Assembly (NCBI GenBank): GCA_028282585.1
Contig: JANQHR010000052.1
Location: forward strand, 32,001 to 96,000
DNA: 64,000 bases
Source of the DNA: Bacteroidales bacterium
Lineage (GTDB): Bacteria; Bacteroidota; Bacteroidia; Bacteroidales; UBA12077
Direction of reading: 5' to 3'
Shown piece by piece: positions 3,945 through 47,945 of the stretch. Made by a program: the position numbers and the translations under genes. Below the pieces are notes generated by a model. It was not told the DNA's origin. It did not search any database and saw nothing but the letters and a program-made list of their open reading frames with translations. The stretch's first letter is position 1. Each line of letters begins with the position of its first letter.

Positions 3945-3953
3945 ATTTTAAAA

Positions 3954-4358
3954 GTATTTAGTTATTTGTTTTTAGTTATTTAATCCTTTTTGATATTGCT
4001 TTTGTTAATCCAGTCAACATTTTTGATATTTCAATTAAATCATTTCTCAATTGTGTATAAATTAGATCATTAATATAATCTCTTCTCTTGGCAATTTCAA
4101 TACATACTACACTTTCCTTTAGATTTGCTTTTGAAATATTTAATAAATTACTTTGGGCTGTCACAAGCTCTTTCCGCAATATTTAACACAACCGAAGTTG
4201 TTGACCTTAATTAACTGACTCGCTAAACTAAATTTCTCAATTTCTGGTAATTTTTCAGTTATCCTATAAATTTCATCGATTAAAACCAGAGATTTTTGAT
4301 ATGCCTCTAATTTTTTGAAATTAAATCCACTTGTTACTAACTACTAATAACCAGAAAC
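3954..4358. repeat. Inverted 7-bp tandem-repeat arms flanking the four-helix pseudogene
   Basis: 3954-3981 gtattta gttattt gttttta gttattt; 4331-4358 ttgttac taactac taataac cagaaac (reverse-complement motif). Confidence 0.65.
3976..4333 (-). pseudogene. Frameshifted four-helix-bundle (23S rRNA IVP-like) gene
   Basis: Three frames give GFNFKKLEAYQKSLVLIDEIYRITEKLPEIEKFSLASQL / LRSTTSVVLNIAE...stop / NISKANLKESVVCIEIAKRRDYI...EISKMLTGL; no in-frame ATG start. Confidence 0.8.
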
Positions 4359-5278
4359 TAATTTACTTTGAAAGTTTCATTTCCGTTTTCAATAAAATCA
4401 ACTATTTGATTAGCTGCTGCAACACCTGCATTTATATTAGCTTCTGCAGTTTGCGCTCCCATTTTCTTAGGAGTAAAGAAAAACCTTCCTTCATATTTCC
4501 CGGTGATTTCATCTTTACAATCAGGAGCTATATCAGAAACATACCTGAAGTCTTCCCTTTCTGAGAAAACCTTTAATAGTTCTTCTTCATTAATAACTTC
4601 TTTTCTTGCAGTATTAATTAAAGTGGCTCCTTTAGGCATTTTACTTATCAGATCAAACCCAACTGATTTTTTAGTTTTTTCATTTGAAGGAATATTTAAA
4701 GATAGATACTGGCAATTTGAATATAGTTCTTCAACTGAACTTACCGGAGTAACTCCATCTTTTTTAATATGTTCATCATTTACAAATGGATCAAAGGCAA
4801 ACACTTCCATTCCAAAGCCTTTTGCAATCTCTCCTACATATCTTCCAACATTTCCATATGCATGAATACCTATCTTTTTACCACGCAATTCAGTTCCTGC
4901 TTTTCCATTATAGTTTCCACGGGCGATCATAACAGCCATCCCAATTGCTAACTCCGCAACTGCATTTGAATTTTGTCCCGGAGTGTTCATAGCTACAATA
5001 TTAGCTTTAGTACAGGCATTCAAATCAAGATTATCATAACCAGCACCAGCTCTTACAACAATTTTTAGGTTTTTCGCTGCATCAATAACTTCTTTAGTTA
5101 CTTTGTCAGAACGAACAATTAAAGCATCAACATCTTCAACGGCTTTTAGGAAATCAGCGTTATCCGTATATTTTTCCAATAAGACCAATTCGTAATTCGC
5201 TTTATCTAAAACTTCCTTAATTTGAGCTACTGCTGCCGATGCAAAGGGTTTTTCGGTTGCAACAAGAACTTTTTTCAT
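4358..5278 (-). CDS. serA: D-3-phosphoglycerate dehydrogenase
   Basis: VRAGAGYDN, NTPGQNSNAVAE, LINTAR, GAQTAEA; adjacent to serC. Confidence 0.9.
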   Translation of the reverse strand: MKKVLVATEKPFASAAVAQIKEVLDKANYELVLLEKYTDNADFLKAVEDVDALIVRSDKVTKEVIDAAKNLKIVVRAGAGYDNLDLNACTKANIVAMNTPGQNSNAVAELAIGMAVMIARGNYNGKAGTELRGKKIGIHAYGNVGRYVGEIAKGFGMEVFAFDPFVNDEHIKKDGVTPVSSVEELYSNCQYLSLNIPSNEKTKKSVGFDLISKMPKGATLINTARKEVINEEELLKVFSEREDFRYVSDIAPDCKDEITGKYEGRFFFTPKKMGAQTAEANINAGVAAANQIVDFIENGNETFKVN

Positions 5279-33105: not shown

Positions 33106-33106
33106 A

Positions 33107-33567
33107 AAATGATTAAATGCATAAATGATTAAATAAAGAATCACATGAATAAAATGACAGAAAAGGAAATATTTATAGAGAATTTAAAGAAACGAACCAA
33201 AAAATTTGCTGTTGATGTTATTTTATTTTGTAATTCACTTAAGGTGTGCAAAGCTTCTGACGTTATAACTTATCAACTTGTAAAATCTGCAACATCAACT
33301 GGGGCTAATTATCGTGCAGCATGCAGAGCTAGGTCAAAAAAGGAATTTTTTAGCAAAATTTGCATTGTTGTTGAAGAGGCTGATGAATCTGAATATTGGT
33401 TAGAACTTATAAATGATACTAATTTATCGAATGATAAAAATGAATTATTAAGGCTTTATAATGAAGCAAATGAAATTACAAAGATAATGACAAAGGCGAA
33501 AAACACATCTTACGTAAGTAAAACTTAATACATTTGATAATTTTAGCATTTACTCATTTAAGCATTG
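33107..33567. repeat. Inverted 8-bp tandem-repeat arms around four-helix gene
   Basis: 33107-33138 aaatgatt aaatgcat aaatgatt aaataaag; 33528-33567 atacattt gataattt tagcattt actcattt aagcattg. Confidence 0.8.
33145..33528 (+). CDS. Four-helix-bundle protein (23S rRNA IVP/bAvd-like)
   Basis: LKKRTKKFA, QLVKSATSTGANYRAACRARS..EF..K..IV.EEADES.YWLEL. Confidence 0.92.
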   Translation: MNKMTEKEIFIENLKKRTKKFAVDVILFCNSLKVCKASDVITYQLVKSATSTGANYRAACRARSKKEFFSKICIVVEEADESEYWLELINDTNLSNDKNELLRLYNEANEITKIMTKAKNTSYVSKT

Positions 33568-33579
33568 AAACTAAAAACC

Positions 33580-33981
33580 ATGGAAAAAGATAAAGTACCA
33601 CAAGATGAAGGGATAACGGGGGGAATAACCCGAGAAGTTCAATATGCTGTTGATAAAGACGGCAAATATGTAAAAACCTTCAGTAAAGGTTGGGAACCTA
33701 AAAATATAGTCAACGAACTTGCATGGGAAGATATACAAGAATTGGTTGATGAAGCTGATGAAAAAATAAAAGCAGGCAAAGCAAGCCCAATTATGCATTA
33801 CATGGCTAAAAACCAAATGAATGTTACGTTGCTTGCCGACTATGTAGAATTATCCAAATGGAAGGTTAAGAAACACCTGAAACCAAAAGGATTCAAGAAC
33901 CTAAAGCCAGAACAATTAGAAAATTATGCGAAAGTATTCAATATTAGCGTAGGTGAGTTAGCTAACTTTAAGCCTGAATAA
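33580..33981 (+). CDS. Small XRE/HTH-like protein paired with BtrH-like gene
   Basis: VPQD, YAVDKDGKY, SKGWEP, SPI..YM, KVKKHLKP..F..L...L..YA.VF; ATG 33580 preferred. Confidence 0.7.
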   Translation: MEKDKVPQDEGITGGITREVQYAVDKDGKYVKTFSKGWEPKNIVNELAWEDIQELVDEADEKIKAGKASPIMHYMAKNQMNVTLLADYVELSKWKVKKHLKPKGFKNLKPEQLENYAKVFNISVGELANFKPE

Positions 33982-34123
33982 TTAAATGAACCATCCAAGT
34001 ACCATTCTTTTTATAGAATTAAATAAATCACATGGATGTTACTTCGGGCTGGAAACAAGGTTTGTTGTATTCAATAATTCAGTAAATAAAAGAGATATCA
34101 ATCAAATTAATATAAAAAAGTAG

Positions 34124-35137
34124 ATGAAACTTGATTTCGAACATATACCTGCAGGGCACTGCGAAAATGGAGTAATTTCAAGCCTGTTAAAATATCATGG
34201 ATTAAACTTAAGCGAAGCCATGATTTTTGGAATTGGCAGTGGTTTCTTTTTTGCATACATGCCATTTGTAAAAGTAAATGGAATTCCATTAGCTTCATTC
34301 CGCCCTGTGCCTGGAATGATATTTTCACGCGCTGCCAAACGGCTAGGAATTAAAATGAAAAAACAATCTTTTAGGAAACAACCTAAAAGAGCGATGGATG
34401 AACTGGATAAGGTTCTTGAAAAGAAATTACCGGTTGGAGTTCAAACCGGAGTATACCACCTAACTTACTTCCCTCCCGCTTACCGATTTCATTTTAATGC
34501 GCACAACTTAACCGTTTTTGGCAAAGAAAATGGAGTATACCATATAAGTGACCCTGTTATGGAATACGCTACTACGTTAACTTCTGAAGAGCTTAAAAAA
34601 GCAAGGTATGCTAAAGGCCCATTAAGCCCTAATGGTAAAATGTATTACCCAATTGATATTCCTGAAAATATCGAATTAAAACCTGCAATTATCAAAGGTA
34701 TTAAACAAACTTGCGATTGGATGTTGACTATCCCGGTTCCATTATTTGGTGTAAAAGGAATTAGGTACCTATCTAAACGAGTTCGTAAATGGCCGGATAA
34801 ATTAGGAGCAAGAAAAGCAGCTTCATATTTAGCGCAATTGGTTAGAATGCTTGAAGAAATTGGTACCGGAGGTGCTGGGTTCCGTTTTATTTACGCTGCA
34901 TTCTTACAAGAAGTATCAGAAGTAATGGAAGACCAACGATATTTTGAACTTTCCAAGAAAATGACAGCAATTGGTGATATGTGGAGAAATTTCTCTTCAT
35001 TGGCTGCGCAAACTTGTAAAGGGCGTTCTTCAGACCCGGACGGTTATAATACAGTGGCAAATCTTATGTTAGAGATTGCTGATGATGAAGAAAGGTTTTT
35101 TACTGAATTAAAACAACTAGTCAATGCAGGAAAATAA
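34124..35137 (+). CDS. BtrH-like protein, copy 2
   Basis: HCENG, FGIGSG, FHFNAHNL, ISDP, EEIGTGGAGFRFIYAAFL. Confidence 0.88.
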   Translation: MKLDFEHIPAGHCENGVISSLLKYHGLNLSEAMIFGIGSGFFFAYMPFVKVNGIPLASFRPVPGMIFSRAAKRLGIKMKKQSFRKQPKRAMDELDKVLEKKLPVGVQTGVYHLTYFPPAYRFHFNAHNLTVFGKENGVYHISDPVMEYATTLTSEELKKARYAKGPLSPNGKMYYPIDIPENIELKPAIIKGIKQTCDWMLTIPVPLFGVKGIRYLSKRVRKWPDKLGARKAASYLAQLVRMLEEIGTGGAGFRFIYAAFLQEVSEVMEDQRYFELSKKMTAIGDMWRNFSSLAAQTCKGRSSDPDGYNTVANLMLEIADDEERFFTELKQLVNAGK

Positions 35138-35882
35138 TCATATCATTGAATTAAAATACCTGACTAAATATTACAAAGGTTCAAGTGTTCCTGCTATTGA
35201 TAACATAAACCTTAACATTGATAAAGGGGAAATATATGGCTTACTTGGCCCTAATGGAGCAGGTAAAACAACTACGATTTCAATTCTCTGTGGGCTATTT
35301 GGTGCAACATCCGGAAATGTTTTTATCGATGGAATGGAATACCAGCATTCCAGAGAAAAAATTAAAAGCATTATTGGGATAGTACCACAAGAAATAGCGC
35401 TTTATCCATCATTAACTGCCAAGGAAAACCTTACATTTTTTGGCCATATGTATGGCCTAAAAGGCAAAGAATTGAAAAATAGAATCAATGAATGCCTTGA
35501 ATTATTTGGCTTAGAGAAAAATGCAAACAGAAGAATTAAAACCTTTTCGGGCGGAATGAAAAGAAGAATAAACCTCATAGCAGGTATTCTTCATAAACCC
35601 AAGATTATATATTTAGACGAACCTACAGTTGGTGTTGACGTGCAATCACGTAATGTGATTTTAGAACATTTGCGTGCTATCAATAAAGAAGGAACAACCA
35701 TTATATACACATCTCATTATATGGAGGAAGCAGAAAATTTCTGTTCTCGTGTAGCTATCATAGATAAGGGAAATATTCTTACCGAAGGTAAACCTAAAGA
35801 ACTAATTGATGGCAAAGAAGAATATACAGATTTAGAAAATATTTTCTTACATATAACAGGAAGAGCATTACGCGACGAATAA
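35124..35882 (+). CDS. ABC transporter ATP-binding protein
   Basis: GPNGAGKT, FSGGMKRR, LDEPT, SH. Confidence 0.95.
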   Translation: MQENNHIIELKYLTKYYKGSSVPAIDNINLNIDKGEIYGLLGPNGAGKTTTISILCGLFGATSGNVFIDGMEYQHSREKIKSIIGIVPQEIALYPSLTAKENLTFFGHMYGLKGKELKNRINECLELFGLEKNANRRIKTFSGGMKRRINLIAGILHKPKIIYLDEPTVGVDVQSRNVILEHLRAINKEGTTIIYTSHYMEEAENFCSRVAIIDKGNILTEGKPKELIDGKEEYTDLENIFLHITGRALRDE

Positions 35883-35949
35883 TTTGCAAAAGTAAATTAG
35901 ATGAATTCTTTATACGATTATAAAATATAAACGGAATAGCTTAAATAAA

Positions 35950-36067
35950 CAAGGGTAGATGGAACATTGGATTATTGGAAATATCAATTTAAAAAATAAT
36001 CATTTAAATTGTTTATATCCATTTTTCCATCAATCCCTGTCTGCCGACAGGCAGGCAAAATTCCAAT
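35950..36067. repeat. Gene-less pair of inverted 8-bp tandem-repeat arms
   Basis: 35958-35981 gatggaac attggatt attggaaa; 36016-36067 tatccatt tttccatc aatc[20 bp]caaa attccaat; inner caatttaaa/tttaaattg stem. Confidence 0.7.
36036..36055. repeat. 20-bp REP-like imperfect palindrome
   Basis: cctgtctgccgacaggcagg; GC-rich island in AT-rich spacer, resembles short palindromes common in Bacteroidota intergenic DNA. Confidence 0.7.
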
Positions 36068-36136
36068 TTTAAATGGTATAAGGTTAAATAATAAATGAAA
36101 CTTTTATAATAGAGTTAAAATACAAATCATCAGAAA

Positions 36137-37420
36137 ATGATACGATTAATATCATCCATATATAAAGAGTTTTTAGTTCTTATTAGAGATCGAGCAGGAT
36201 TGGCAATTTTATTTATTATGCCTTTAGTTCTTATACTCATAATGACTTTAATTCAAGATGCAACTTTCAGGACGGTAAAAGAAGTTGACATCTCAATGAT
36301 TCTAGTAAATAATGATAGGGATAGTTTAGGCGAAGCTATTAGCCAAGGATTATACGATTCAGAGTTTTTTACTATAGTCGAAGAAATTGATGGAGAAAAA
36401 ATCACCGATTCTTTAGCAAAAGAATTAGTTGCAAGAGGCGATTATAAAATTGGAATTATTATTCCGGAAAGAGCAACAGATGCTATTCGAGGCAATGTTA
36501 ATGCTTTAATCAATAAATCTTTCAAATCATTTAATGTTCCGGGAGTAAAGAAAAGAACCAGGAAAAGTACAATTGATATTACTATTTATATTGACCCTGC
36601 AACAAGCCAGTCTTTTAAAAATATGGTAATGAGTTCCTTAAAGGAGTTTACTTCACAGCTAGAGATTGAAATGTTTTTTAAGAACTTTTCGGAAGCCATG
36701 GCTCAAATGATGCCAGGCCAAAAACCTATAAAATTTGAAAGCTTTGAAACCATAAAGTACCAGGAAGTTTATGCTTCAACAACAAAGGATGAAATGCTTC
36801 CAAATTCGGTTCAACATAATGTACCTGCATGGACTATGTTCGCAATGTTCTTTATTGTACTGCCACTAGCTGGAAACATTATTAAAGAACGGGATGATGG
36901 AAGTGCTTTCCGTTTAAAAACAATGCCAGGGTCTTTTGTTACAGTTATGTTTAGTAAGATTTTTGTATTTCTAGGTGTAGCATTTTTACAGTTTATTTTA
37001 ATGCTAATGGTTGGTGTTTACATCATGCCACTAATGGGATTGCCACAGTTGGAAATTGGCCCTCATAAAATTGCATTAGGTGTTATGGCAATTGCTTCCG
37101 GGTTAGCCGCAACAGGTTACGGAGTTGCTATTGGAACTATCGCAACTACCCATGAACAAGCAGCCACTTTTGGTGCTGTTTCAATTATCATTTTTGCAGC
37201 TTTAGGCGGCATTTGGGTTCCGGTATATGTAATGCCTCATACAATAAGAATTATCAGCCAGTTCTCTCCTCTTCATTGGGGGTTAAATGGCTTTTATGAT
37301 ATATTCCTTCGTGGCGGTGATATTTCTGTAGTAATCGCTGAAACTGCAAAATTGTTGCTGTTTTTTGTAATCATGCTATTAATAGCAGTTGCTTATAATA
37401 AGTACACAAAAACCAAATAA
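36137..37420 (+). CDS. ABC-2 type exporter permease
   Basis: KEF..L.RD...L..LFIMP, QHNVP.WTMFAMFF, ER..G...RL, LGGIWVP, SPL.W. Confidence 0.92.
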   Translation: MIRLISSIYKEFLVLIRDRAGLAILFIMPLVLILIMTLIQDATFRTVKEVDISMILVNNDRDSLGEAISQGLYDSEFFTIVEEIDGEKITDSLAKELVARGDYKIGIIIPERATDAIRGNVNALINKSFKSFNVPGVKKRTRKSTIDITIYIDPATSQSFKNMVMSSLKEFTSQLEIEMFFKNFSEAMAQMMPGQKPIKFESFETIKYQEVYASTTKDEMLPNSVQHNVPAWTMFAMFFIVLPLAGNIIKERDDGSAFRLKTMPGSFVTVMFSKIFVFLGVAFLQFILMLMVGVYIMPLMGLPQLEIGPHKIALGVMAIASGLAATGYGVAIGTIATTHEQAATFGAVSIIIFAALGGIWVPVYVMPHTIRIISQFSPLHWGLNGFYDIFLRGGDISVVIAETAKLLLFFVIMLLIAVAYNKYTKTK

Positions 37421-37426
37421 ATCCCA

Positions 37427-37902
37427 GGTTCATAGTTTAAAGTACAAAGTTTAAAAGTTTTATATTTAATGGCAGCATTTACAAAATTTGAAGATATTGA
37501 AGCTTGGAGAAAAGCTCGTGAATTATGCAAGCTTATCTTTGAAATAACTGAAAAAGACAAGTTTTCCAGAGATTTTTCTTTAAAAGACCAAATTAGAAGA
37601 TCTTCTGGTAGTGTAATGGACAATATTGCTGAAGGCTTTGAAAGAGGTGGAAGAAAAGAATTTATACAATTTCTTTTTATTTCAAAATCATCTTGTGCTG
37701 AAACAAAATCACAGTTATATCGGGCACTTGATTATAAATATATTGACAAAAATGAATTGAATAAATGGTATGAGAAAGCTTGCGAATGCACAAAACTCAT
37801 TGTTGGATTAATCAATTATCTCAAATCATCTAGTGTTAAAGGCCTAAAGTATTTATAAAATCACTTTGAAAACTTTGAACTGTAAACTTTGAACTAAGAA
37901 CT
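37427..37902. repeat. Inverted 7-bp tandem-repeat arms around four-helix gene
   Basis: 37427-37462 ggttcat agtttaa agtacaa agtttaa a agtttta; 37868-37902 gaaaact ttgaact gtaaact ttgaact aagaact. Confidence 0.82.
37469..37858 (+). CDS. Four-helix-bundle protein (23S rRNA IVP/bAvd-like)
   Basis: FEDIEAWRKAREL, LKDQIRRSSGSVMDNIAEGFER...KEFIQFL.ISK.SCAE..SQLY.A.D. Confidence 0.93.
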   Translation: MAAFTKFEDIEAWRKARELCKLIFEITEKDKFSRDFSLKDQIRRSSGSVMDNIAEGFERGGRKEFIQFLFISKSSCAETKSQLYRALDYKYIDKNELNKWYEKACECTKLIVGLINYLKSSSVKGLKYL

Positions 37903-37990
37903 ATTAAAACATTGTTAATAATTTAAAACATAATATGCTAACTTTTAATCCATAGAGCTTAATTTAGCAGTTTGTTAAAAAAATAGAAAA

Positions 37991-38419
37991 TTGGAAAAGA
38001 AACCACTAATACATAGAACTGAAATCGTTGTAAGGTTTAGTGAAGTAGATTCGATGGGAATCGTATGGCATGGTAATTATGCCAAATACTTTGAAGATGG
38101 CCGTGAAGCATTTGGGAAGGCTTTGGGCTTAAGTTACCTGGATGTTTATGCAAACAAGCACCTCACTCCTCTTGTTAAACTTGATTTTGAGTACAAAACT
38201 CCTCTTGAATATGGAGATTCAGCAATTATAGAAACAAGGTATATTGACCATGATGCTGCTAAAATTCATTTTGAATATACCATATACAACAAAAAAAATA
38301 ACAAGGTTGCTGCAACCGGAGAAAGCATTCAGGTGTTTTTAAATCTAGAAAGAGAATTGGTTTTAATTGCTCCTGATTTTTTCCTTGAATGGAAAAGAAA
38401 AATGGGACTCCTTGAATAA
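37991..38419 (+). CDS. YbgC/4HBT-like acyl-CoA thioesterase
   Basis: VRFSEVDSMGIVWHGNY..YFE.GR. Confidence 0.92.
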   Translation: MEKKPLIHRTEIVVRFSEVDSMGIVWHGNYAKYFEDGREAFGKALGLSYLDVYANKHLTPLVKLDFEYKTPLEYGDSAIIETRYIDHDAAKIHFEYTIYNKKNNKVAATGESIQVFLNLERELVLIAPDFFLEWKRKMGLLE

Positions 38420-38866
38420 TGAACATCGATTAACGAATATAGAATTAAGAAATGGCAAAGACATTGACAAAATATGATTTAGAAGAAAGACTGATTAATT
38501 TTTCAGTATTGATAATTGATATAGTTAATGAAATGCCAAATACAAAAGCAGCAAATCATCTTTCGGGACAACTTGTTCGTTCTGGTACTTCGCCCGCTCT
38601 TAATTATGGTGAAGCGCAAAGTGCAGAATCAAGAAAGGATTTCATTCATAAGATGAAGGTTATTCTTAAAGAATTAAGAGAAACATTTGTGTGTTTGAAG
38701 ATAATTCATCGATGTAAATTGTTTAAAACAGAAGAAAAAATTATAATAGCTAAAGAAGAAAATAATGAGCTTATTTCAATATTTGTAAAAAGCATCGAAA
38801 CAGCAAAAAACAATTTAAATTCCAATAAATCTTAAATCGTTAATCTGTGTTCGATGTTCGATATTC
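38414..38866. repeat. Inverted 7-bp tandem-repeat arms around four-helix gene
   Basis: 38414-38455 gaataat gaacatc gattaac gaatata gaattaa gaaatgg; 38825-38866 ataaatc ttaaatc gttaatc tgtgttc gatgttc gatattc. Confidence 0.88.
38452..38835 (+). CDS. Four-helix-bundle protein (23S rRNA IVP/bAvd-like)
   Basis: DLEERLINF, QLVRSGTSPALNYGEAQSAESRKDFIHK..V.LKELRET..L. Confidence 0.93.
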   Translation: MAKTLTKYDLEERLINFSVLIIDIVNEMPNTKAANHLSGQLVRSGTSPALNYGEAQSAESRKDFIHKMKVILKELRETFVCLKIIHRCKLFKTEEKIIIAKEENNELISIFVKSIETAKNNLNSNKS

Positions 38867-38903
38867 AAATAAGAATTGAATATGATTTAAGAAGATTAAT
38901 AAA

Positions 38904-40064
38904 ATGAATAAAATTTACACAATAGCAGACAACATAATATCATCTTTGGGCTTTACAAGCAAAGAAAACTTTGAGAACCTTAAGCAAGGCATATCTGGAA
39001 TCAAACAAACATCAGACCCTAAAATTACACAGGTTCCAATGCAATGTTCTTTAGTTAATACAGAGAAATTAAATTCGGAATTTGAAAAAATTGGAAAACC
39101 TGAAGGATATACACGCCTGGAGAAACTAATGATATTATCTATCGCAGATTGCTTAAAACAATCAGGTGTAGATTCTACAAGTGAAGACACTTTGTTTATT
39201 TTTTCATCGGTTAAAGGAAATATCGATTTAATTGAGGATGAAAACCATCCTTTTGAAGAAGACAGAATAAACCTGTGGGCAATATCTGATGCAATTTGTA
39301 ATTTCTTCAAGGCGAAAAATGAAGCAATTTTTGTATCGAATGCATGCATTTCAGGTGCCACAGCTATCATAACGGCAGCCCAATATTTATCCGCTAAAAA
39401 ATATAAAAATGCCATTGTTTGCGGTGGTGATATTATTTCTGAATTTACACCTTCTGGTTTTCAATCGTTCAAAGCAGTGAGCGAAGAGCCTTGTAAACCT
39501 TTTGATGCAAACAGGAATGGTATCACTTTAGGCGAAGGTGCTGGTACAATTATTTTAACTGCTGATAAAGATTTAGTTAAAGAAGAAAATCCAATAGTTT
39601 TCAGAGGTGGGGCAAATACAAATGATGCAAACCATATTTCAGGGCCATCGAGAACTGGAGATGGATTATATTATGCAATCAGAAATGCACTAAACCAAGC
39701 AAATAAAACCAATACTGAAATCGACTACATTTCGGGGCATGGAACGGCAACTCCATACAACGATGAAATGGAATCGAAAGCCATTTCATGGGCCGGGCTT
39801 AAACATGTTCCCGTTAATAGCCTGAAAGGCTACTGGGGGCACACTTTAGGAGCTGCAGGAATCATTGAAAGTATTGCTGGAATTCATTCTATAAAGGAAA
39901 ACTGTTTAATAAGAACGAATGGATTTTCTGAACATGGTGTTAGTGAAGCAATTAATGTAATCAATGAATTTAAGGAAACTGAAGTAAAGAATTTCTTAAA
40001 AACAGCTTCTGGTTTTGGTGGTAGTAATGCCGCAGTTTATTTTTCTGAATTAAATGCTGATTAA
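38904..40064 (+). CDS. Beta-ketoacyl synthase family protein
   Basis: SNACISG, PFD..R.G..LGEGA, SGHGTAT..ND, GHTLGAAG, SGFGG. Confidence 0.9.
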   Translation: MNKIYTIADNIISSLGFTSKENFENLKQGISGIKQTSDPKITQVPMQCSLVNTEKLNSEFEKIGKPEGYTRLEKLMILSIADCLKQSGVDSTSEDTLFIFSSVKGNIDLIEDENHPFEEDRINLWAISDAICNFFKAKNEAIFVSNACISGATAIITAAQYLSAKKYKNAIVCGGDIISEFTPSGFQSFKAVSEEPCKPFDANRNGITLGEGAGTIILTADKDLVKEENPIVFRGGANTNDANHISGPSRTGDGLYYAIRNALNQANKTNTEIDYISGHGTATPYNDEMESKAISWAGLKHVPVNSLKGYWGHTLGAAGIIESIAGIHSIKENCLIRTNGFSEHGVSEAINVINEFKETEVKNFLKTASGFGGSNAAVYFSELNAD

Positions 40065-40099
40065 TTAGAAAATTGAAAATAGAAAATTATTAGAACATT

Positions 40100-40534
40100 A
40101 TGTCTTATATTAGAATTTGGTTACATTGTGTTTGGGGAACTAAAAAGCGAATTCCTTTTCTAACAAAAGACAATAAATGGGATATTATAAACCATATTAA
40201 AGATAATGCAAAGGCAAAAGGCATTTACATAAATTTTATTAATGGAAACAAAGAGCATATTCATTGTATAATTTCGCTTAAGGCTGATGAAGCCTTATCT
40301 AAAACTATTCAATTAATTAAGGGAGAATCTTCATTTTGGATAAATAAAAACAGTTTATCAAAAGGTAAATTTGAATGGGCGGATGAATACTTTGCTGTTT
40401 CAATTAGTGAATCTCAAGTGCCTAAAGTAAGGGATTACATAAAGAATCAAGAAGAGCATCATAGCAATAAAACATGGAAAGAAGAATATGAAGAATTTAT
40501 ACAAAAGTATAATTTCGAAAAGATTAAGGGCTAA
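40100..40534 (+). mobile_element. tnpA: IS200/IS605-family (Y1 HUH, RAYT-like) transposase
   Basis: H.VWGTK.R, EHIH (HUH), IKGESS, FEW...YF..S, YIKNQ catalytic Tyr. Confidence 0.9.
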
Positions 40535-40620
40535 AGCCCTCGTTATTTTGAGGATTTATAACCCCAGCCTTAAGGCTGGGGTTAAAGAAAATACCCTTGA
40601 ATGGACTTTAGTCCCTTAAT
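40523..40620. repeat. Composite palindromic REP-like module at the transposase 3' end
   Basis: Outer inverted repeats attaagggctaaagcc / ggactttagtcccttaat enclosing perfect 26-bp palindrome taaccccagccttaaggctggggtta (40559-40584). Confidence 0.88.
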
Positions 40621-40639
40621 TTACTTAATTACCACGTTT

Positions 40640-41269
40640 ATGGAAAACATCATATCAAAATATTGCATTATACAACCGCATAAGGTTATAGTTGATGGAA
40701 AATCAGAATTAATCGATCCTGAGAAAAGCGAATTCGGAGCATTCATGAAATCCATCTATAAACATTACGATATAAAGTATCCAAAGTATTTTAAAATGGA
40801 TAACCTATGCAAGATTGCTTTTATTGCATCCGAAATTGTATTGAAAGGAAATGAACATATCAAGGAATTGGACCCTACCAAAGTAGGTGTGATTTTACAA
40901 AACTCGCATTCATCCATAGATACAGATACTAAATACAACGATACTATTAAGGATAAATCAAACTACTTTCCAAGCCCGGCAGTATTTGTTTATACCTTGC
41001 CCAACGTAATGATTGGCGAAATTTGTATTCGAAATAAGTTTCAAGGTGAAAATACCTGTTTTATAGCCAAACAATTCAACCCCGAATTTGTAACTGAATA
41101 TGTAGGCGAACTGTTAGGTTCTGGCAAGTTAGATGCTTGTATTGCCGGGTGGGCAGATTACATGGATGGAGAATACAGTTCGATGTTGTTTTTAGTTGAA
41201 AAAAATAAGGAAAATAAAAAAGATAGTATTAGTTTTAACCCCCAAATCATAAATGGATTAATTAAGTAA
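40640..41269 (+). CDS. Truncated ketosynthase-like / chain-length-factor-like protein
   Basis: YPKYFKMD.L.K, FPSPAVFVYTLPNVMIGEI.I, GEN; no catalytic Cys; ATG 40640 preferred because 40601 lies in the palindrome. Confidence 0.8.
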   Translation: MENIISKYCIIQPHKVIVDGKSELIDPEKSEFGAFMKSIYKHYDIKYPKYFKMDNLCKIAFIASEIVLKGNEHIKELDPTKVGVILQNSHSSIDTDTKYNDTIKDKSNYFPSPAVFVYTLPNVMIGEICIRNKFQGENTCFIAKQFNPEFVTEYVGELLGSGKLDACIAGWADYMDGEYSSMLFLVEKNKENKKDSISFNPQIINGLIK

Positions 41270-41275
41270 ATAGAA

Positions 41276-41530
41276 ATGGAAGAGTTAATTTTAAAGATTA
41301 AAGAACAAGTAATAGAGGTATTGAATTTAGAAGATATTGAGCCAGCAGATATTGATACAGATGCACCATTATTTGGTGATGGTTTAGGGCTTGATTCAAT
41401 TGATGCATTAGAATTGATCGTATTATTAGAAAAACAATATGGAATAAAAATCGAAGACCCAAAAGACGGAAAAAAGATTTTTTATTCAATTAGGACAATT
41501 GCTGAATACATCGAAGAAAAAAAGAAATAA
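41276..41530 (+). CDS. Acyl carrier protein (aryl-polyene type)
   Basis: APLFGDGLGLDSIDALEL. Confidence 0.93.
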   Translation: MEELILKIKEQVIEVLNLEDIEPADIDTDAPLFGDGLGLDSIDALELIVLLEKQYGIKIEDPKDGKKIFYSIRTIAEYIEEKKK

Positions 41531-41551
41531 TATTTGATAAAGGATTTGTAG

Positions 41552-42751
41552 ATGTCAAAGAGGGTATTTGTAACAGGCATAGGAATTATATCAGGAATCG
41601 GAAATAATGTAGAAGAAACACTTCAATCTCTTAAAGAGAAAAAATCCGGAGTAGAAGATATCAAGTATCTTCAAACCAACCACAAAGGTGTCATTCCTGT
41701 TTCGGAAGTAAAGTTATCTGAAGAAGAATTGATTAAAAGAGCCGGATTGCCTCAAGGTGAACCTTATACTCGATCGACTCTAATTGGTATAATTGCTGCT
41801 GACGAAGCAGTTAAAAATGCTCAGATTAATGATATCAAAGAATGTAAAACCGGATTGATATCCGGAACTACTGTTGGTGGAATGGACAAAAGCGAGCTTT
41901 ATTACAGAGACCTTTTAGAAACTACAAACCATATCGAATATATCGAAACCCACGATTGTGGTGATAGTACTGAGCGAATTGCTGATTACATTGGGATTAA
42001 GGATTTTGTTTCAACTACAAGTACTGCGTGTTCATCCGCTGCTAATTCAATGATATTAGGAGCCAGAATGATCAAAAACGGTTTACTAGACCGTTGTGTT
42101 GCAGGTGGAATCGAATCATTAACCAAATACCACATGAATGGCTTTAACACATTAATGATTCTTGACCGTGAACCGTGTAAACCTTTTGATGAAAACAGAA
42201 AAGGTTTAAACCTTGGTGAAGGAGCTGCCTTTCTGGTGTTAGAATCTGAAGAGATGGTTCAAAAATCTGGTAAAAAAGTGCTTGCTGAATTAACGGGTTA
42301 TGGAAACTCATGTGAAGCTTTCCATCAAACAGCTTCTACTCCTGAAGGTAAAGGTGCATATGCAGCCATGAAAGAAGCTTTGGAAAGAAGCGGGTTAAAG
42401 CCGGAAGATATTGATTATGTGAATGCTCATGGTACAGGAACAGATAACAATGACCTTTCAGAAGGAAGAGCTATTGAAAACATTTTTGGTAAGAATATTC
42501 CTAAGGTAAGTTCAACTAAATCGTATACCGGGCACACAACAAGTGCTGCAGGTGGTGTTGAAGCAGTTATATCAGTTCTTACCTTACAGCACAACATGAT
42601 TTTCCCGAACCTGAATTTTAAAGAGCAAATGAAAGAACTTAAATTCAAACCTGTAACTGAAGTTATAGAAAATGTTAAGGTCGACCATGTACTATCCAAT
42701 TCTTTTGGTTTCGGAGGTAATAATTCAGCGTTAATTTTCTCAAGATATTAG
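41552..42751 (+). CDS. Beta-ketoacyl-ACP synthase (aryl-polyene KS type)
   Basis: STACSSAAN, GLNLGEGAA, NAHGTGT.NND.SE, KSYTGHT, SNSFGFGGNN. Confidence 0.93.
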   Translation: MSKRVFVTGIGIISGIGNNVEETLQSLKEKKSGVEDIKYLQTNHKGVIPVSEVKLSEEELIKRAGLPQGEPYTRSTLIGIIAADEAVKNAQINDIKECKTGLISGTTVGGMDKSELYYRDLLETTNHIEYIETHDCGDSTERIADYIGIKDFVSTTSTACSSAANSMILGARMIKNGLLDRCVAGGIESLTKYHMNGFNTLMILDREPCKPFDENRKGLNLGEGAAFLVLESEEMVQKSGKKVLAELTGYGNSCEAFHQTASTPEGKGAYAAMKEALERSGLKPEDIDYVNAHGTGTDNNDLSEGRAIENIFGKNIPKVSSTKSYTGHTTSAAGGVEAVISVLTLQHNMIFPNLNFKEQMKELKFKPVTEVIENVKVDHVLSNSFGFGGNNSALIFSRY

Positions 42752-42752
42752 T

Positions 42753-43817
42753 ATGGAAGTTTACATAAAAGGCATCGGTAATATATCTCCTCAAAATACT
42801 ACAGATAGCAAAGTATTTTTAGATGAAGTTGTGAATCACGAATCTGATTTTCTTTCTTGTATTGAACCCAATTATAAAGAATTTATTAATCCCATTCAGC
42901 TTCGCCGAATGAGTAAACTGATAAAAATGGGGATCAGTGCTTCAAAAATTTGTTTGCAGGATGCTGGTGTTGAAGAACCAGGTGCAATTATTACCGGAAC
43001 AGGACTGGGGTTGGTTGGTGATACTGAAAAATTCCTGAACCAGGTTTTAGACCATAATGAGGAACTTCTTGCCCCCACTGCTTTTATTCAATCAACGCAC
43101 AATACAATTAGCGGGCAGGTTGCAATTGCCTTAAAATGCTTTAAATACAACAATACATACTCGCACCGCGGTTTTTCCTTTGAAAGTGCGCTTTTAGATG
43201 GAATGCTGTTGGTTGAAAATAAGGATGCTGGCCATGTTTTGGTTGGCGGTTTCGATGAAATCACTGGTGAACACTATAAAATCATCAAAAAAACAAAGTG
43301 GGTAAAAGATGAAACTATAAAAAGCCTTGAACTAATTGATCATAAAACGCAAGGAACCATTGTTGGCGAAAGTGTTGCTTTCTTTACGTTAACTGGTAAG
43401 AAAGATGAAAACACGTACGCAAAAATTCAAGATATTAAGACCATATATAAACCTGAAAACAACCATGAAATTGAAACTAAAATCGATGAATTCTTAGCTA
43501 AAAATAAGCTAAAAAAGCAAGATATTGATTTGGTGGTTTTAGGTTTAAATGGAAACGTTGACACTGATGATGTTTACCTTCATCTAGCAGATAACTATTT
43601 CAATACAAATTATGCTTATTTCAAGCACCTTTCCGGTGATTACCACACGGTTGGTTCATTTGCATTATGGTTTGCTGCAAATTCAATTAAACATCAGAAT
43701 GTACCAGAAGTAGCTCGTTTCAGAAAAGAAAACTTTACTGAAAAACCAATAAAAAACGTATTGGTATACAATCATTTTAGAAAAGTTGACCATTCAATAT
43801 TTTTATTAACTCAATGA
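42753..43817 (+). CDS. Ketosynthase chain-length factor
   Basis: LRRMS, GTGLG, PTAFIQSTHNT, SFE.ALLD; lacks catalytic Cys; adjacent to KS. Confidence 0.85.
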   Translation: MEVYIKGIGNISPQNTTDSKVFLDEVVNHESDFLSCIEPNYKEFINPIQLRRMSKLIKMGISASKICLQDAGVEEPGAIITGTGLGLVGDTEKFLNQVLDHNEELLAPTAFIQSTHNTISGQVAIALKCFKYNNTYSHRGFSFESALLDGMLLVENKDAGHVLVGGFDEITGEHYKIIKKTKWVKDETIKSLELIDHKTQGTIVGESVAFFTLTGKKDENTYAKIQDIKTIYKPENNHEIETKIDEFLAKNKLKKQDIDLVVLGLNGNVDTDDVYLHLADNYFNTNYAYFKHLSGDYHTVGSFALWFAANSIKHQNVPEVARFRKENFTEKPIKNVLVYNHFRKVDHSIFLLTQ

Positions 43818-44575
43818 TCAAACCAAGAACTACATTCGTTCTTTACATCATTGTTTTAATCCTGGTTTATCTCTTTCTTCCATGGAAAGGGATATTTTTT
43901 ACTCTATTAACAGTCTTATTTTTAGCTCATTTAGTTTATTGCTCGGTAAATATTTGCTCTCAAGCTTACATTAAAACCTTTTGCAAACGCGATACACAAG
44001 AAAAAAAGATAGCCATCACTTTTGATGATGGGCCGGATTCAGAAATTACTCCGAAGGTTTTAGAGATATTAGACGAGTTCGCTGTAAAAGCTACTTTCTT
44101 TTGTATCGGAAATCAAATCGAACGCAATAGAGATATCTTAAAAGCGTTAGATTCAAAAGGGCATTTAATTGGTAATCATAGCTATTCGCACGAGTTTTGG
44201 TTCGATTTATACCCGGCAAATAAGATGCAAGAAGATATTAAAAAAACAAATGGACTGATTTTTGAAACAATTGGTAAAAAAACGAAGCTGTTCCGCCCTC
44301 CTTATGGTGTTACAAACCCTTCTTTAAAGAAAGCTATTAAGGATTTAGGTTTTAATACTATTGGATGGAGCATACGTTCTTTAGATACTGTAAGCAAAAC
44401 TGAAAAAACTATTCAACGAATTAAGAAAAAATTATCACCGGGAGATATGATATTATTTCATGATAACAGAGAACAAATAATTCTAATCTTAAAAGAGTTT
44501 ATAGATTATACCAAATCCGAAGGATATGAGATTGTTCCTCTCGACGAATTATTAAATATACAAGCTTATGAATAA
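43814..44575 (+). CDS. Polysaccharide deacetylase family protein
   Basis: TFDDGP, ATFF, GNHSYSH, FRPPYG, ILFHD. Confidence 0.92.
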   Translation: MIKPRTTFVLYIIVLILVYLFLPWKGIFFTLLTVLFLAHLVYCSVNICSQAYIKTFCKRDTQEKKIAITFDDGPDSEITPKVLEILDEFAVKATFFCIGNQIERNRDILKALDSKGHLIGNHSYSHEFWFDLYPANKMQEDIKKTNGLIFETIGKKTKLFRPPYGVTNPSLKKAIKDLGFNTIGWSIRSLDTVSKTEKTIQRIKKKLSPGDMILFHDNREQIILILKEFIDYTKSEGYEIVPLDELLNIQAYE

Positions 44576-45206
44576 GATATTAAGTACTATAATCAGCCTC
44601 TTTTTATTTATTACCATTTTAAATGCTCAGGAAAATGGATTTTCTAAGGTTAAGGATATGGAAAAAACGAAGTCGGATTTATCAAAATTAACAGAAAACA
44701 CTTCAGCCATAAAGAGTCAATTTGTACAGGAAAAACATCTAAGTTTTTTAACTGAGAATATAAGGTCAAAAGGTGAATTTTACTTCAAAAGCCCTAATTC
44801 GCTTCGTTGGGAATATTCAGAGCCATTCGAATATATTATCGTATTCAATGATAAAAATATTATGATTAAAGATGGTGCTAAAATCAGCACATATGATACT
44901 GAATCAAACAAAATGTTTAGCGAAATCAATAATATGATGATTGGTACTATTCAGGGCAATTTATTTACAGATAACGAACGGTTTGATGTAGAATATTTTG
45001 AAAATGCTTCTCAATATTTGCTTGAACTGGATCCCAAATTACCTGAAATGAAAAGTATGCTGAAAACAATCAAAATATTCATTGATAAATCAGATATTTC
45101 AGTGGCTAAAATTAAAATGATTGAAAGTTCAGATGATTATACCAGTATTGAATTCATAAACAGAAAACTGAACCAGGAAATAAAAGAATCCATCTTTAAA
45201 CTATAA
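44568..45206 (+). CDS. LolA-like lipoprotein/lipid carrier
   Basis: Signal peptide, F.QEK.L, S.G.FYFK.P..LRWEY..P. Confidence 0.88.
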   Translation: MNKILSTIISLFLFITILNAQENGFSKVKDMEKTKSDLSKLTENTSAIKSQFVQEKHLSFLTENIRSKGEFYFKSPNSLRWEYSEPFEYIIVFNDKNIMIKDGAKISTYDTESNKMFSEINNMMIGTIQGNLFTDNERFDVEYFENASQYLLELDPKLPEMKSMLKTIKIFIDKSDISVAKIKMIESSDDYTSIEFINRKLNQEIKESIFKL

Positions 45207-45224
45207 CTATTTTACTTTTTAATA

Positions 45225-45914
45225 ATGAATATTGAACACCGAACACCGAATCTAGAAATAAAACAAATCTTTCGTATTTCGTCATTCATAATTCGATATT
45301 CGGTATTTCTAATTATTGTATTTCTATCAAGTTGTGCCAATCCCCATAAAAATCTGCCAAGTACTGAATTAAGAGTATCAGAAATTAAAAATATCCCTTA
45401 TGCCCTTCCTTATACCGATAAAGCAATCATATACAAAACAGATATCAGCTTTTATAAAAATGATATTAGTGGATTATTGATCATTAAAAGAACAGACGAA
45501 AATGTATATCGTATTGCTTTAACCACCCAATTCGGCTTAAAGATATTTGATTTTGAATTGAACCATGGAGAACTCAAGGTAAAGTATTGTGTTGAATATT
45601 TAAATAAAAAAGTAATCCTAAACACATTTGAAACAGATTTCAACCTGCTTTTATTGCAAAACAAATTTGATAGCATACAAAGAATACAAAACCAGAAACA
45701 AAATCAAACTATCTGGCAATTAAAATCGGGCAAATTAAACTACAACTATATAGAGGATGTAAATTCGCAAAATGTTGTACGCATTAGCTTTAAGAAGAGA
45801 AATTCTGAAAAAATTTCAGTAGGTTTGTATGCGTACCGAGGTGATATTCCAGGAGAAATAAAGTTGGAGCATCACAACATAAAACTAAAAATGGATTTAA
45901 AATTGATTCAATAA
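45225..45914 (+). CDS. Hypothetical lipoprotein
   Basis: Lipobox LSSC at residues 34-37; SGLLIIK, FGLKIFDF. Confidence 0.75.
   Translation: MNIEHRTPNLEIKQIFRISSFIIRYSVFLIIVFLSSCANPHKNLPSTELRVSEIKNIPYALPYTDKAIIYKTDISFYKNDISGLLIIKRTDENVYRIALTTQFGLKIFDFELNHGELKVKYCVEYLNKKVILNTFETDFNLLLLQNKFDSIQRIQNQKQNQTIWQLKSGKLNYNYIEDVNSQNVVRISFKKRNSEKISVGLYAYRGDIPGEIKLEHHNIKLKMDLKLIQ
45227..45308. repeat. Gene-less pair of inverted 7-bp tandem-repeat arms inside the 5' end of the lipoprotein CDS
   Basis: 45227-45261 gaatatt gaacacc gaacacc gaatcta gaaataa; 45267-45308 atctttc gtatttc gtcattc ataattc gatattc ggtattt. Confidence 0.82.
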
Positions 45915-46288
45915 TGCTTTTAAAAGATTTTTATACCCTTGCTGAATTAGATAAAAGTGATCAAGAAAACTTCAAAGCCATCATCGATCTAAATAAGGAT
46001 CATGAAGTATACAAGGGCCATTTTCCAGGCAATCCTGTTGTTCCGGGCGTTTGCTTAACGCAATTGATAAAGGAAATCATGGAGACTGCTGAAAACAAAG
46101 AATTGAACCTTGTTTATGCCGATAATATCAAATTTATGTCAGTTGTAAATCCTGAGGTAAACAGCAGGCTTCAGATCGACTTGAAAGTAAAATACGATGA
46201 CGAACAAAACCTAATTAAGGTAAATAGTGTTACTCATTTTAACGATCAGGTTTTTTACAAATTTAAAGGTAACTTTAGGGCAAAGTAA
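45914..46288 (+). CDS. FabZ-like 3-hydroxyacyl-ACP dehydratase
   Basis: H.VY.GHFPGNPVVPGVC, IKF...VNP. Confidence 0.9.
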   Translation: MLLKDFYTLAELDKSDQENFKAIIDLNKDHEVYKGHFPGNPVVPGVCLTQLIKEIMETAENKELNLVYADNIKFMSVVNPEVNSRLQIDLKVKYDDEQNLIKVNSVTHFNDQVFYKFKGNFRAK

Positions 46289-46300
46289 AATTTTTGGGGA

Positions 46301-47509
46301 ATGGATTTGGAAAAGTACCGCGAGATATTTAGGGAGAAAAAGTGCTGTGTAATTATACCCACTTATAATAATGATCAAACCATTGAAAAAGTTGTTTCTG
46401 ATGTGTTGAAATATACCAATCAGGTTATTGTTGTTAACGATGGATCAACAGACCAAACAGGCGATATTTTAAGCAAGATCAGTGAAGTTGATGTTGCAAG
46501 TTATCCTAAAAACAAAGGAAAAGGGTACGCTTTAAAAACCGGCTTTAAATATGCATGGAAAAGTGGTTATGAATATGCAATCACCATTGATTCCGACGGG
46601 CAACATTTTGCTTCGGATTTGCCAAAATTTGTAGAAGCCATTAATGAAAATCCAAATTCCATTATAATTGGAAATAGAAATATGGAACAGGATGGTATTC
46701 CTGGGAAAAGTAGTTTTGGAAACCGCTTTTCCAATTTCTGGTTTAAGTTCGAAACTGGAATTTCAATGCCTGATACCCAATCAGGATACAGGCTTTATCC
46801 TTTAAAGCCATTGAGTAAAATGCGCTTGTTCACCAATAAATACGAATTAGAAATAGAAGTTATCGTAAGAGCAGCCTGGAGAGGTGTTGACGTAACTCAT
46901 CTTCCAATTCAAATTTATTATGCCCCGAAAGAAACAAGAGTTTCTCATTTTAAACCTTTCATAGATTTTACAAGAATAAGTATTTTGAATACGATTTTGG
47001 TTATTTATGCATTGCTAGTTGCTAAGCCCTTTGCTTTTGTTAAGAAATTAAATAAAAAGAATATCCAGGAATTCTTTAGAGATCAAATATTACAAAATAA
47101 GGAACCAAATATCAAGATTACATTTGCCATTATGCTTGGTTTGTTTATGGGTGTTGCACCAGTGTGGGGATACCAGATGCTGATTGCTTTTGCTTTAGCG
47201 CATATTCTAAAATTGAATAAAGTGATTGTATTAGTTGCTTCTAATATCAGCATCCCTCCTATGATTCCGATTGTACTTTTTGCCAGTTTTAAAACAGGAG
47301 GATTTTTTGTTGAAGCCAATAAGCTTAACCTGCGCTTTGATTCAAGTATTAGTCTGGATTTAATTAAGGACAACCTAACTCAATATGTTGTTGGTAGTCT
47401 AGTATTTGGAATTTTACTAGCTTTAACCTTTGGTATTGTTACTTATATTTTACTTCTTATCTTTCGGAAAAAACCGGTATTACAAAAAGAGTATGTTAAA
47501 TTAGATTAA
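46301..47509 (+). CDS. GT2 glycosyltransferase fused to DUF2062-like membrane domain
   Basis: IIPTYNN, VNDGSTD, NKGKG, IDSDGQH, DTQSGYRLYP; hydrophobic C-terminus. Confidence 0.9.
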   Translation: MDLEKYREIFREKKCCVIIPTYNNDQTIEKVVSDVLKYTNQVIVVNDGSTDQTGDILSKISEVDVASYPKNKGKGYALKTGFKYAWKSGYEYAITIDSDGQHFASDLPKFVEAINENPNSIIIGNRNMEQDGIPGKSSFGNRFSNFWFKFETGISMPDTQSGYRLYPLKPLSKMRLFTNKYELEIEVIVRAAWRGVDVTHLPIQIYYAPKETRVSHFKPFIDFTRISILNTILVIYALLVAKPFAFVKKLNKKNIQEFFRDQILQNKEPNIKITFAIMLGLFMGVAPVWGYQMLIAFALAHILKLNKVIVLVASNISIPPMIPIVLFASFKTGGFFVEANKLNLRFDSSISLDLIKDNLTQYVVGSLVFGILLALTFGIVTYILLLIFRKKPVLQKEYVKLD

Positions 47510-47940
47510 GTACTTAAAGTGATCTAAAGTTTATAAGTGTCTAAAGTTATATGAATAATAAAGAGTTTAGCCAAAAATTAGAAACCAGAACCAAAGAATT
47601 TGCTAAAAGCATTATTAAACTCTCGGCAAGTCTCGAAAAATCATCAGAAAATAATGTAATTAAAAATCAAGTTACAAAATCAGGAACAAGTATTGGTGCA
47701 AATTATAGAGAAGCAAACCGGTCAAGAAGTCGAGCTGATTTTACGAATAAAATTAAAATTTGTGAAAGCGAAGCAAATGAAACCGTATACTGGTTAGAAA
47801 TTATATCAGAAATGAATCTAGTAAAACTCGAAATAATCAGGCCAATTTTGATGGAAGCAAGAGAAATACTTGCTATTTTTACAACTATTAGCAAAAATGT
47901 TAAACTTAAGGCATTTTAGGCACTTTTAATTTTAGGCAAT
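47506..47940. repeat. Inverted ~9-bp tandem-repeat arms around four-helix gene
   Basis: 47506-47548 ttaagtact taaagtgatc taaagttt ataagtgtc taaagtt; 47903-47940 aacttaagg cattttagg cactttta attttagg caat. Confidence 0.75.
47551..47919 (+). CDS. Four-helix-bundle protein (23S rRNA IVP/bAvd-like)
   Basis: LETRTKEFA, QVTKSGTSIGANYREANRSRSRADF..K..I...EA.ET.YWLE. Confidence 0.93.
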   Translation: MNNKEFSQKLETRTKEFAKSIIKLSASLEKSSENNVIKNQVTKSGTSIGANYREANRSRSRADFTNKIKICESEANETVYWLEIISEMNLVKLEIIRPILMEAREILAIFTTISKNVKLKAF

Positions 47941-47945
47941 TCAAC

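Follow-up and report, generated by a model that had tools for sequence, protein, structure and literature searches.

PF05635 genes between complementary tandem-repeat arms in Bacteroidota operon spacers: probable promoterless cassettes built like rRNA intervening sequences

The closest described counterparts of the units reported here are the intervening sequences (IVSs) of bacterial ribosomal RNA (rRNA). According to one account (PMC4990558), these have terminal inverted repeats, with a 28-bp stem around an S23p open reading frame (ORF), and are cut by RNase III. We analyzed a 64,000-nucleotide (nt) stretch of DNA from a Bacteroidales bacterium (assembly GCA_028282585.1, contig JANQHR010000052.1, positions 32,001-96,000 of the forward strand; hereafter the window), in which four small genes for four-helix-bundle proteins of family PF05635, each flanked by arms of short tandem units, sit in the spacers of one operon. 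Set against the same account (PMC4990558), these cassettes resemble the 23S rRNA IVSs of Coxiella burnetii and Leptospira in their size of ~430-570 nt, in the stem of complementary ends that encloses a PF05635 ORF, in their sporadic occurrence among relatives, and in lying at a site where the host RNA tolerates a break. They differ in that they occupy the spacers of protein-coding operons rather than 23S helix 9, 25 or 45. They also carry private tandem arm units of 7-8 nt with a G-first bias, their ORFs are under purifying selection, and RNase III cutting is for them a prediction. A strict rRNA IVS is ruled out, as the four genes lie between protein-coding genes and there is no rRNA in the region: Rfam gave nothing relevant, and positions 32500-48500 are free of rRNA matches. 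In four complete Bacteroidota genomes the 23S genes match the model end to end over 2866-2882 nt and are not interrupted. As set out below, we conclude that the units are probably promoterless cassettes built like 23S rRNA IVSs, which are lodged in protein-coding operon spacers and are gained and lost there. We hold their nature as elements with moderate confidence, and the RNA-processing step with lower confidence.

No role of PF05635 proteins is known outside diversity-generating retroelements, where the family is represented by Avd. The proteins encoded here share with Avd the Pfam family, a basic character and solved relatives with five chains, and that of cassette 2 matches an Avd profile weakly. 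They differ from it in having no template or variable repeat in their context and in occurring as many copies scattered over unrelated operons. No match to the reverse transcriptase domain RVT_1 was found in the genome, which is 98.35% complete. With no RVT_1 in the genome and pigment-pathway genes as neighbors, an Avd subunit of a diversity-generating retroelement is ruled out.

The four ORFs score 46-117.5 bits against PF05635 (cut-off 33.8) and 74.9-112.8 bits against TIGR02436 (cut-off 24). Their products are 17-38% identical to one another, which bears out the view taken in a first-pass annotation of the window, made from its letters alone, that they are not recent duplicates; the two N-terminal subtypes recognized there (F.KL/FEDI..W/Y.K and L..RT/RL..F) were also found. 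All four proteins are mildly basic (isoelectric point 9.0-9.6, net charge +4 to +6 per chain), and the solved relatives 2gsc and 2rld were deposited with five chains each. The median dN/dS over 76 related pairs was 0.14, indicating that the proteins are functional and their genes under purifying selection. Defence-system and phage libraries gave two weak matches, one of cassette 1 in the PADLOC library (E 2.4e-4) and the Avd match of cassette 2 mentioned above. Of 151 Bacteroidota genomes sampled, 114 have the family, mostly with several copies each. A profile search of the window's own genome returned 20 matches, 16 of them above the cut-off and one being the broken gene of the window (4009-4316, minus strand); Bacteroides thetaiotaomicron, in the control set of that search, was positive as well. 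For the analyses below we used a larger sample of 127 cassettes: 98 near-full-length ones from the own genome and 20 relatives (genus set), and 29 from 29 genomes spread over Bacteroidota (phylum set). Paired counts are given in that order.

In the cassettes, a small selected four-helix-bundle gene lies between complementary arms of tandem 7-8 nt units (Table 1). Direct reading and Tandem Repeats Finder, which reported arrays at 33107-33134 and 33540-33566 (period 8) and at 37871-37895, 38848-38866 and 45234-45250 (period 7), confirmed the repeat units, the two gene-less hairpins and the armed pseudogene already named in the first-pass annotation. We ranked arm complementarity as a percentile against non-cognate arm pairs and scored RNA duplexes separately by z-score. 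The arms of cassettes 1, 2 and 3 fell at the 98.7th, 99.8th and 91.5th percentile, with duplex z-scores of -3.2, -4.9 and -4.9, respectively. Those of cassette 4 reached only the 54th percentile (z -0.3), no better than chance, indicating a real 5' array and a 3' arm that is a mere stump. Complementary termini enclosing an ORF, as expected of an IVS, were thus seen as duplexes for cassettes 1-3 and as predicted folds for cassettes 1 and 3, where the arm stem closes around the ORF in both the minimum-free-energy and the centroid structure.

The same organization recurred in the larger sample. Cognate complementarity exceeded the 95th percentile of non-cognate pairs in 48/98 and 16/29 cassettes. 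At least one flank was periodic (p<0.05 against shuffles) in 71/98 and 22/29, compared with 10/95 and 1/29 for control DNA inside neighboring genes; the enrichment over neighboring coding DNA is about sevenfold. Period 7 was the commonest (34 of 45 significant 5' flanks) and period 8 came next. Two variants were also seen: at locus L129 the gene is followed first by a second, direct copy of the 5' array and then by the inverted arm, and at L150 C-rich units stand in the same orientation on both sides of the gene. These results bear on the alternative that there is no element at all and that slippage-prone, AT-rich spacers flank small genes by chance. Low-score tandem arrays are indeed common (Tandem Repeats Finder lists 40 rows in the 64 kb and 3186 genome-wide), and a genome-wide search for partners, starting from arrays, was barely above its controls (15 vs 2 and 11 at score 30). 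We nevertheless regard chance as a very improbable explanation: cognate arms pair far better than non-cognate ones, the periodicity is enriched as given above, the polarity described below is missing from ordinary hairpins, and the design is met again in 29 genomes from across the phylum.

Cassettes come and go as whole units among close relatives. The segment 33107-47940 is part of a tightly packed operon of flexirubin or aryl-polyene type, which was present in all 37 genus genomes searched, and the orthologous clusters of 20 congeners were mapped with the window's proteins. In these clusters, most counterparts of the cassette-bearing spacers measure 9-22 nt (~11 nt). Cassettes 1 and 3 were each seen in the nearest relative only, and are broken there; cassette 2 was present in 2 of the 20 clusters (76-78% protein identity) and cassette 4 in none. 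The spacer with the gene-less hairpin 35951-36039 measures 254 nt here and 9-13 nt in 19 of the 20 congeners. Other congeners have gene-less tandem-unit hairpins in these same spacers: two carry the AAAGTT/AACTTT motif of cassette 2 and others a different motif. Which arm lineage occupies the ABC permease-thioesterase spacer differs between species. Contigs of related organisms from other metagenomes, aligned to the window, join across the sites of cassettes 2 and 4 and of the hairpin 35951-36039, and in one case across that of cassette 1; in one contig, most of the cassette 1 gene is missing through an internal deletion of 306 nt. Such joins and this deletion suggest that gene-less hairpins plausibly arise from cassettes by internal deletion.

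The arms belong to the cassette, being inherited and duplicated with the gene; three paralogous cassettes in the own genome have a homologous 5' arm in common. Through the addition and loss of units, arms evolve more rapidly than the protein, but within one cassette their complementarity is preserved. The wrapper also has a second, unrelated cargo family: genes for PDDEXK_3 (GxxExxY) proteins (E 2.6e-41 and 8.7e-38) lie between arms of the same kind both in relatives and in the own genome. These loci are C118:9028-9378(-), C118:13856-14191(-) and C41:28278-28630(+) in the own genome and spacers in L032 and L031, and their inverted arms consist of repeated units such as CGCAAAG/CTTTGCG.

Whether the arms act as RNA or as DNA can be approached through their placement. 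The cargo is almost always co-oriented with its neighbors, and the arms span from the upstream stop codon to the downstream start codon. Orientation was the same, opposite or unclear for the upstream neighbor in 57/4/37 cassettes of the genus set and 18/2/9 of the phylum set, and for the downstream neighbor in 57/3/38 and 19/1/9. The 5' arm starts a median of 2.5 nt before the end of the host stop codon, and the 3' arm ends a median of 4 nt before the host ATG. This near-universal co-orientation, together with arms flush with host stop and start codons, points to a life in the transcript. The cargo would then be expressed by read-through transcription. In the operon transcript the arm stem would draw the host stop and start codons together and would be a likely substrate of RNase III, as for rRNA IVSs, and closure of the stem may be what makes the insertion tolerable to the host. 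The public sequencing runs that turned up for window positions 36900-39100 included no listed RNA data set.

Several observations weigh against this reading. In about half of the cassettes, arm complementarity is not above the non-cognate background, and the folds of cassettes 1 and 3, taken whole, have modest z-scores (-2.5 and -1.8). Arm mismatches compatible with G:U pairing numbered 66, as against 80 A:C-type transitions, in the genus set and 18 against 15 in the phylum set. With no G:U excess, there is no sign of selection on sense-RNA folding specifically. Symmetric mismatches of this kind fit DNA-level copying between arms with neutral decay, or constraints on both strands, equally well, and they are compatible with an RNA role. 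Covariation among seven orthologues of one cassette was slight: the inner stem does not vary, and all of the rare double changes are confined to one sequence. Finally, neither a mechanism of insertion nor a target duplication or a recombinase came to light, the search having included nothing aimed at an integrase. In cassette 3, compared by eye between the window and its nearest relative, a C to T change in the 5' arm is paired with a G to A change in the 3' arm, a single event.

A rival reading is a mobile element that acts at the DNA level, whose arms would be terminal inverted repeats, or ends built by synthesizing a short unit over and over at both 3' ends of a break. They would be handled by a host or element enzyme acting in trans, with the RNA hairpin as a by-product. 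Besides the symmetric mismatches, such an element would accommodate a polarity that is strand-symmetric and specific to cassette arms, the presence or absence of whole units among close relatives, the species-specific arm lineages in the ABC permease-thioesterase spacer, and a protein of nuclease fold, PDDEXK_3, as an alternative passenger. We consider it unlikely, since the arms are private to each copy, unlike ends that are read by a common transposase, and a purely DNA-level role does not predict the strong co-orientation with host genes. Moreover, near-identical cassette copies are absent from the own genome, no RVT_1 reverse transcriptase was found in it, and no target-site duplication was recognizable at the four insertion sites, where the ancestral spacers are too short and too diverged. 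Two described classes were also rejected. For a transposon or miniature inverted-repeat transposable element with terminal inverted repeats, the arms differ between copies and no target duplication was recognized. For an integron gene cassette, there are two flanking arms per gene instead of a single downstream attC site, and the cassettes stand singly between operon genes instead of in arrays; this comparison was made without an integrase search. The IVS-like cassette remains our preferred account.

The first-pass annotation had proposed that protein and motif co-evolve as a specificity code, with 4-6 units per arm read by a pentameric ring. In this scheme each subunit of the protein would take up one unit of the cassette's own arms, in the form of single-stranded RNA or DNA, in the service of the processing, regulation or movement of the cassette. 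The correlation it predicted was found: arm period mapped on the protein tree requires 12 changes, compared with a shuffle mean of 17.9, and none of 500 shuffles gave 12 or fewer. This is also what joint descent is expected to produce, and the code itself is left unsupported. Non-cognate arms pair as well as cognate arms at protein identities of at least 75%, partially at 60-75%, and at background below 45%; joint descent accounts in full for the link between motif and protein, the arms passing down together with the gene and drifting more quickly. The private motifs are marks of lineage and not evidence of recognition. Units change even within protein clusters of at least 60% identity (AAAGTTT, AGTAC-type and GAGTTCA, for example), and cassettes 2 and 4 have a TAAAGT core in common despite their different protein subtypes. 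Units per arm have a median of 4.4 and an interquartile range of 3.7-5.3, which would suit a pentamer, but the full range of 2.4-10.4 does not indicate a fixed five-unit reading. The five chains of 2gsc and 2rld, the basic proteins, the purifying selection and the weak Avd match of cassette 2 are all compatible with binding. On the other side, about half of the genes are without a clear arm pair, gene-less arms persist (the TGGA-type 8-mer of 35951-36039 was not seen, by eye, in the own-genome cassette flanks inspected), and the unrelated PDDEXK_3 family has the same kind of arms. Since gene-less arms persist and PDDEXK_3 cargo occurs in such arms, the arm design needs no four-helix protein encoded in cis. 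Co-evolution with pentameric reading is in our judgement a minority possibility, and a specificity code of this kind improbable; these findings remove the evidence offered for binding without disproving it. Ring proteins of the TRAP type, which read spaced RNA repeats, offer an analogy, in that arrays of 4-6 units would suit an oligomeric ring whose subunits each take one short repeat. They differ in that they have no sequence or fold relation to the cassette proteins, and the number of units here is variable.

The arms also have a polarity. It had been claimed that in all seven window elements the conserved G lies in the upstream arm and the conserved C in the downstream arm relative to transcription. 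Counting paired columns as G:C versus C:G gave 2:1, 5:3, 3:2, 3:1, 3:0, 7:1 and 4:1, so that 7/7 are indeed G-first, although three margins amount to a single pair and the call is thin for GAA/TTC units, which hold C and G on both arms (CGAA/TTCG). The reference to transcription is uninformative, because an inverted repeat X...X' reads X...X' on the opposite strand too. The order was non-random in the larger sample as well. Among the 48 genus-set cassettes with significant arms, 34 were G-first, 9 C-first and 5 ties (26, 6 and 1 when counted by protein clusters at 60% identity); in the phylum set the ratio was 14 to 2 among significant arms and 26 to 3 among all 29. In base composition, 5' arms have 20% G and 8% C, with the mirror image in 3' arms; in 36 of the 48 cassettes the 5' arm is the richer of the two in purines. 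The C-first exceptions have CAATTG/CAATGA-type units in common and are scattered on the protein tree (9 changes vs 10.3 in shuffles). As a control, 265 ordinary non-tandem hairpins of the own genome comprised 102 G-first, 107 C-first and 56 ties, showing that the bias is specific to cassette arms. The cassettes are real, with the caveats given above, and the G-first (purine-first) order is a genuine, strand-symmetric bias of about 4 to 1 (~80%) and not a rule.

Because the order is the same on both strands, a strand-symmetric cause at DNA ends, or a filter that is independent of orientation, is needed to explain it. Such a filter might act if the G-poor, ATG-poor, C-bearing arm were transcribed last and paired at once. 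ATG density is 2.2 per 100 nt in 5' arms and 1.0 in 3' arms, which follows from base composition and does not tell cause from effect. Avoidance of G before start codons has at best a weak claim as the cause: genome-wide, G at positions -20 to -1 before starts is only mildly depleted (0.09-0.10 vs 0.11 for C). A genome-wide hairpin census, which supplied the 265 control hairpins, found only 5-6 gene-less tandem-arm hairpins; it is insensitive, as 45233-45309 (C116 ~77233-77309) is not among the six. The polarity also enters a fuller version of protein recognition, in which the cargo protein would read the arms as a pentameric ring on about five single-stranded units, with a specificity that drifts with the motif and the purine-first order marking the strand on which it loads from either side. 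We consider this version quite unlikely.

Two further kinds of intergenic repeat invite comparison with the cassettes and their gene-less derivatives. Correia elements of Neisseria and the ERIC/IRU elements of enterobacteria are small inverted-repeat insertions that lie between genes in operons and form RNA hairpins. The gene-less derivatives look alike, and the difference is that one consensus holds across copies there, whereas the units here are private to a lineage, the arms are tandem arrays and many enclose a gene. The STRR heptamer repeats of filamentous cyanobacteria are, by description, like the arms: tandem 7-nt units that lie between genes and for which no function is known. In the literature listings STRR serves as a fingerprinting tool, and no link to four-helix-bundle cassettes was found there.

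Table 1. Cassette genes, arms and related features of the window. Positions count from the first letter of the window.
Feature	Position	Strand	Description
Cassette 1 5' arm	33107..33134	+	~3.5 units of AAATGATT, period 8
Cassette 1 gene	33145..33528	+	PF05635/TIGR02436 four-helix-bundle protein, 127 amino acids
Cassette 1 3' arm	33532..33566	+	CATTT-type units, period 8, complementary to 5' arm
Gene-less hairpin	35951..36039	.	(TGGA)-type and (TCCA)-type 8-mer arms
Cassette 2 5' arm	37424..37463	+	AAAGTTT/AAAGTAC units, period ~7
Cassette 2 gene	37469..37858	+	PF05635/TIGR02436, 129 amino acids; nearest solved structure 2gsc; weak match to Avd of diversity-generating retroelements
Cassette 2 3' arm	37863..37903	+	AACTTTG units, period 7
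Cassette 3 5' arm	38412..38449	+	GAACATCGATTAACGAAT...; begins at, or within, the thioesterase stop codon
Cassette 3 gene	38452..38835	+	PF05635/TIGR02436, 127 amino acids
Cassette 3 3' arm	38836..38868	+	TGTTCGA units, period 7
Gene-less hairpin	45233..45309	.	GAACACC/TTCG-type 7-mer arms, related to cassette 3 motif
Cassette 4 5' array	47510..47549	+	CTAAAGT-type units, period 9-10
Cassette 4 gene	47551..47919	+	PF05635/TIGR02436, 122 amino acids; nearest solved structure 2rld
Cassette 4 3' arm remnant	47920..47944	+	Short, degenerate; complementarity at chance level
Broken PF05635 gene, two pieces (4009-4316), with arms	3951..4360	-	Profile match, direct reading
Pseudogene 5' arm	4360-4327	-	GTT/AGT-type; direct reading
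Pseudogene 3' arm	3978-3951	-	AAC-type; direct reading

Other features were seen in these spacers. The ATG called mechanically at 45225 for the ORF 45225-45914 (+) overlaps the gene-less hairpin 45233-45309; since relatives align only from about residue 18-37, translation probably begins further downstream. An IS200-like Y1 transposase gene at 40100-40534 (+; PF01797, E 1e-24) occupies the spacer between two operon genes (flanks 40064-40600). GAAAATT-type tandem units stand before it, and after it comes a GC-rich palindrome, CCCCAGCC..GGCTGGGG, which recurs in a relative's spacer; the nearest relative also has the gene, and most congeners lack it. GC-rich palindromes of the CTGCCGNCAGGCAGG type are polymorphic insertions within or beside cassette arms (36038-36058 in the window, 38838 and 40572 in relatives, and spacers of L031). 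They are similar to REP elements, and there may be a relation to Y1 transposases, for which four matches occur in the genome. A different, non-tandem hairpin of the CATCCATGA...TCATGGATG type lies at 33982-34123, in the spacer between a helix-turn-helix gene and a BtrH-like gene, and recurs in the same spacer in congeners L031, L042, L046 and L048. Finally, at locus L044 of one congener, the otherwise conserved operon is split by a 7.4-kb insertion that separates the LolA-like gene from its next neighbor in the operon.

A search by family name and by design found no published description of PF05635 cassettes in operon spacers, with subscription journals mostly outside its reach. Whatever their origin, the G-first order places a concrete constraint on any model of how the arms arise or act. 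If the cargo did read its arms as a ring, the cassettes would be a class of self-recognizing mobile or self-processing elements across bacterial phyla, and the PF05635 family and the heptamer repeats of bacteria would have a shared function. If instead, as we think probable, PF05635 genes are the cargo of IVS-shaped elements that colonize operon spacers, then such elements would be no curiosity of rRNA but a general class of insertion tolerated by operons. Tandem heptamers and hairpins between bacterial genes, so far unexplained, would then have such insertions as one source.

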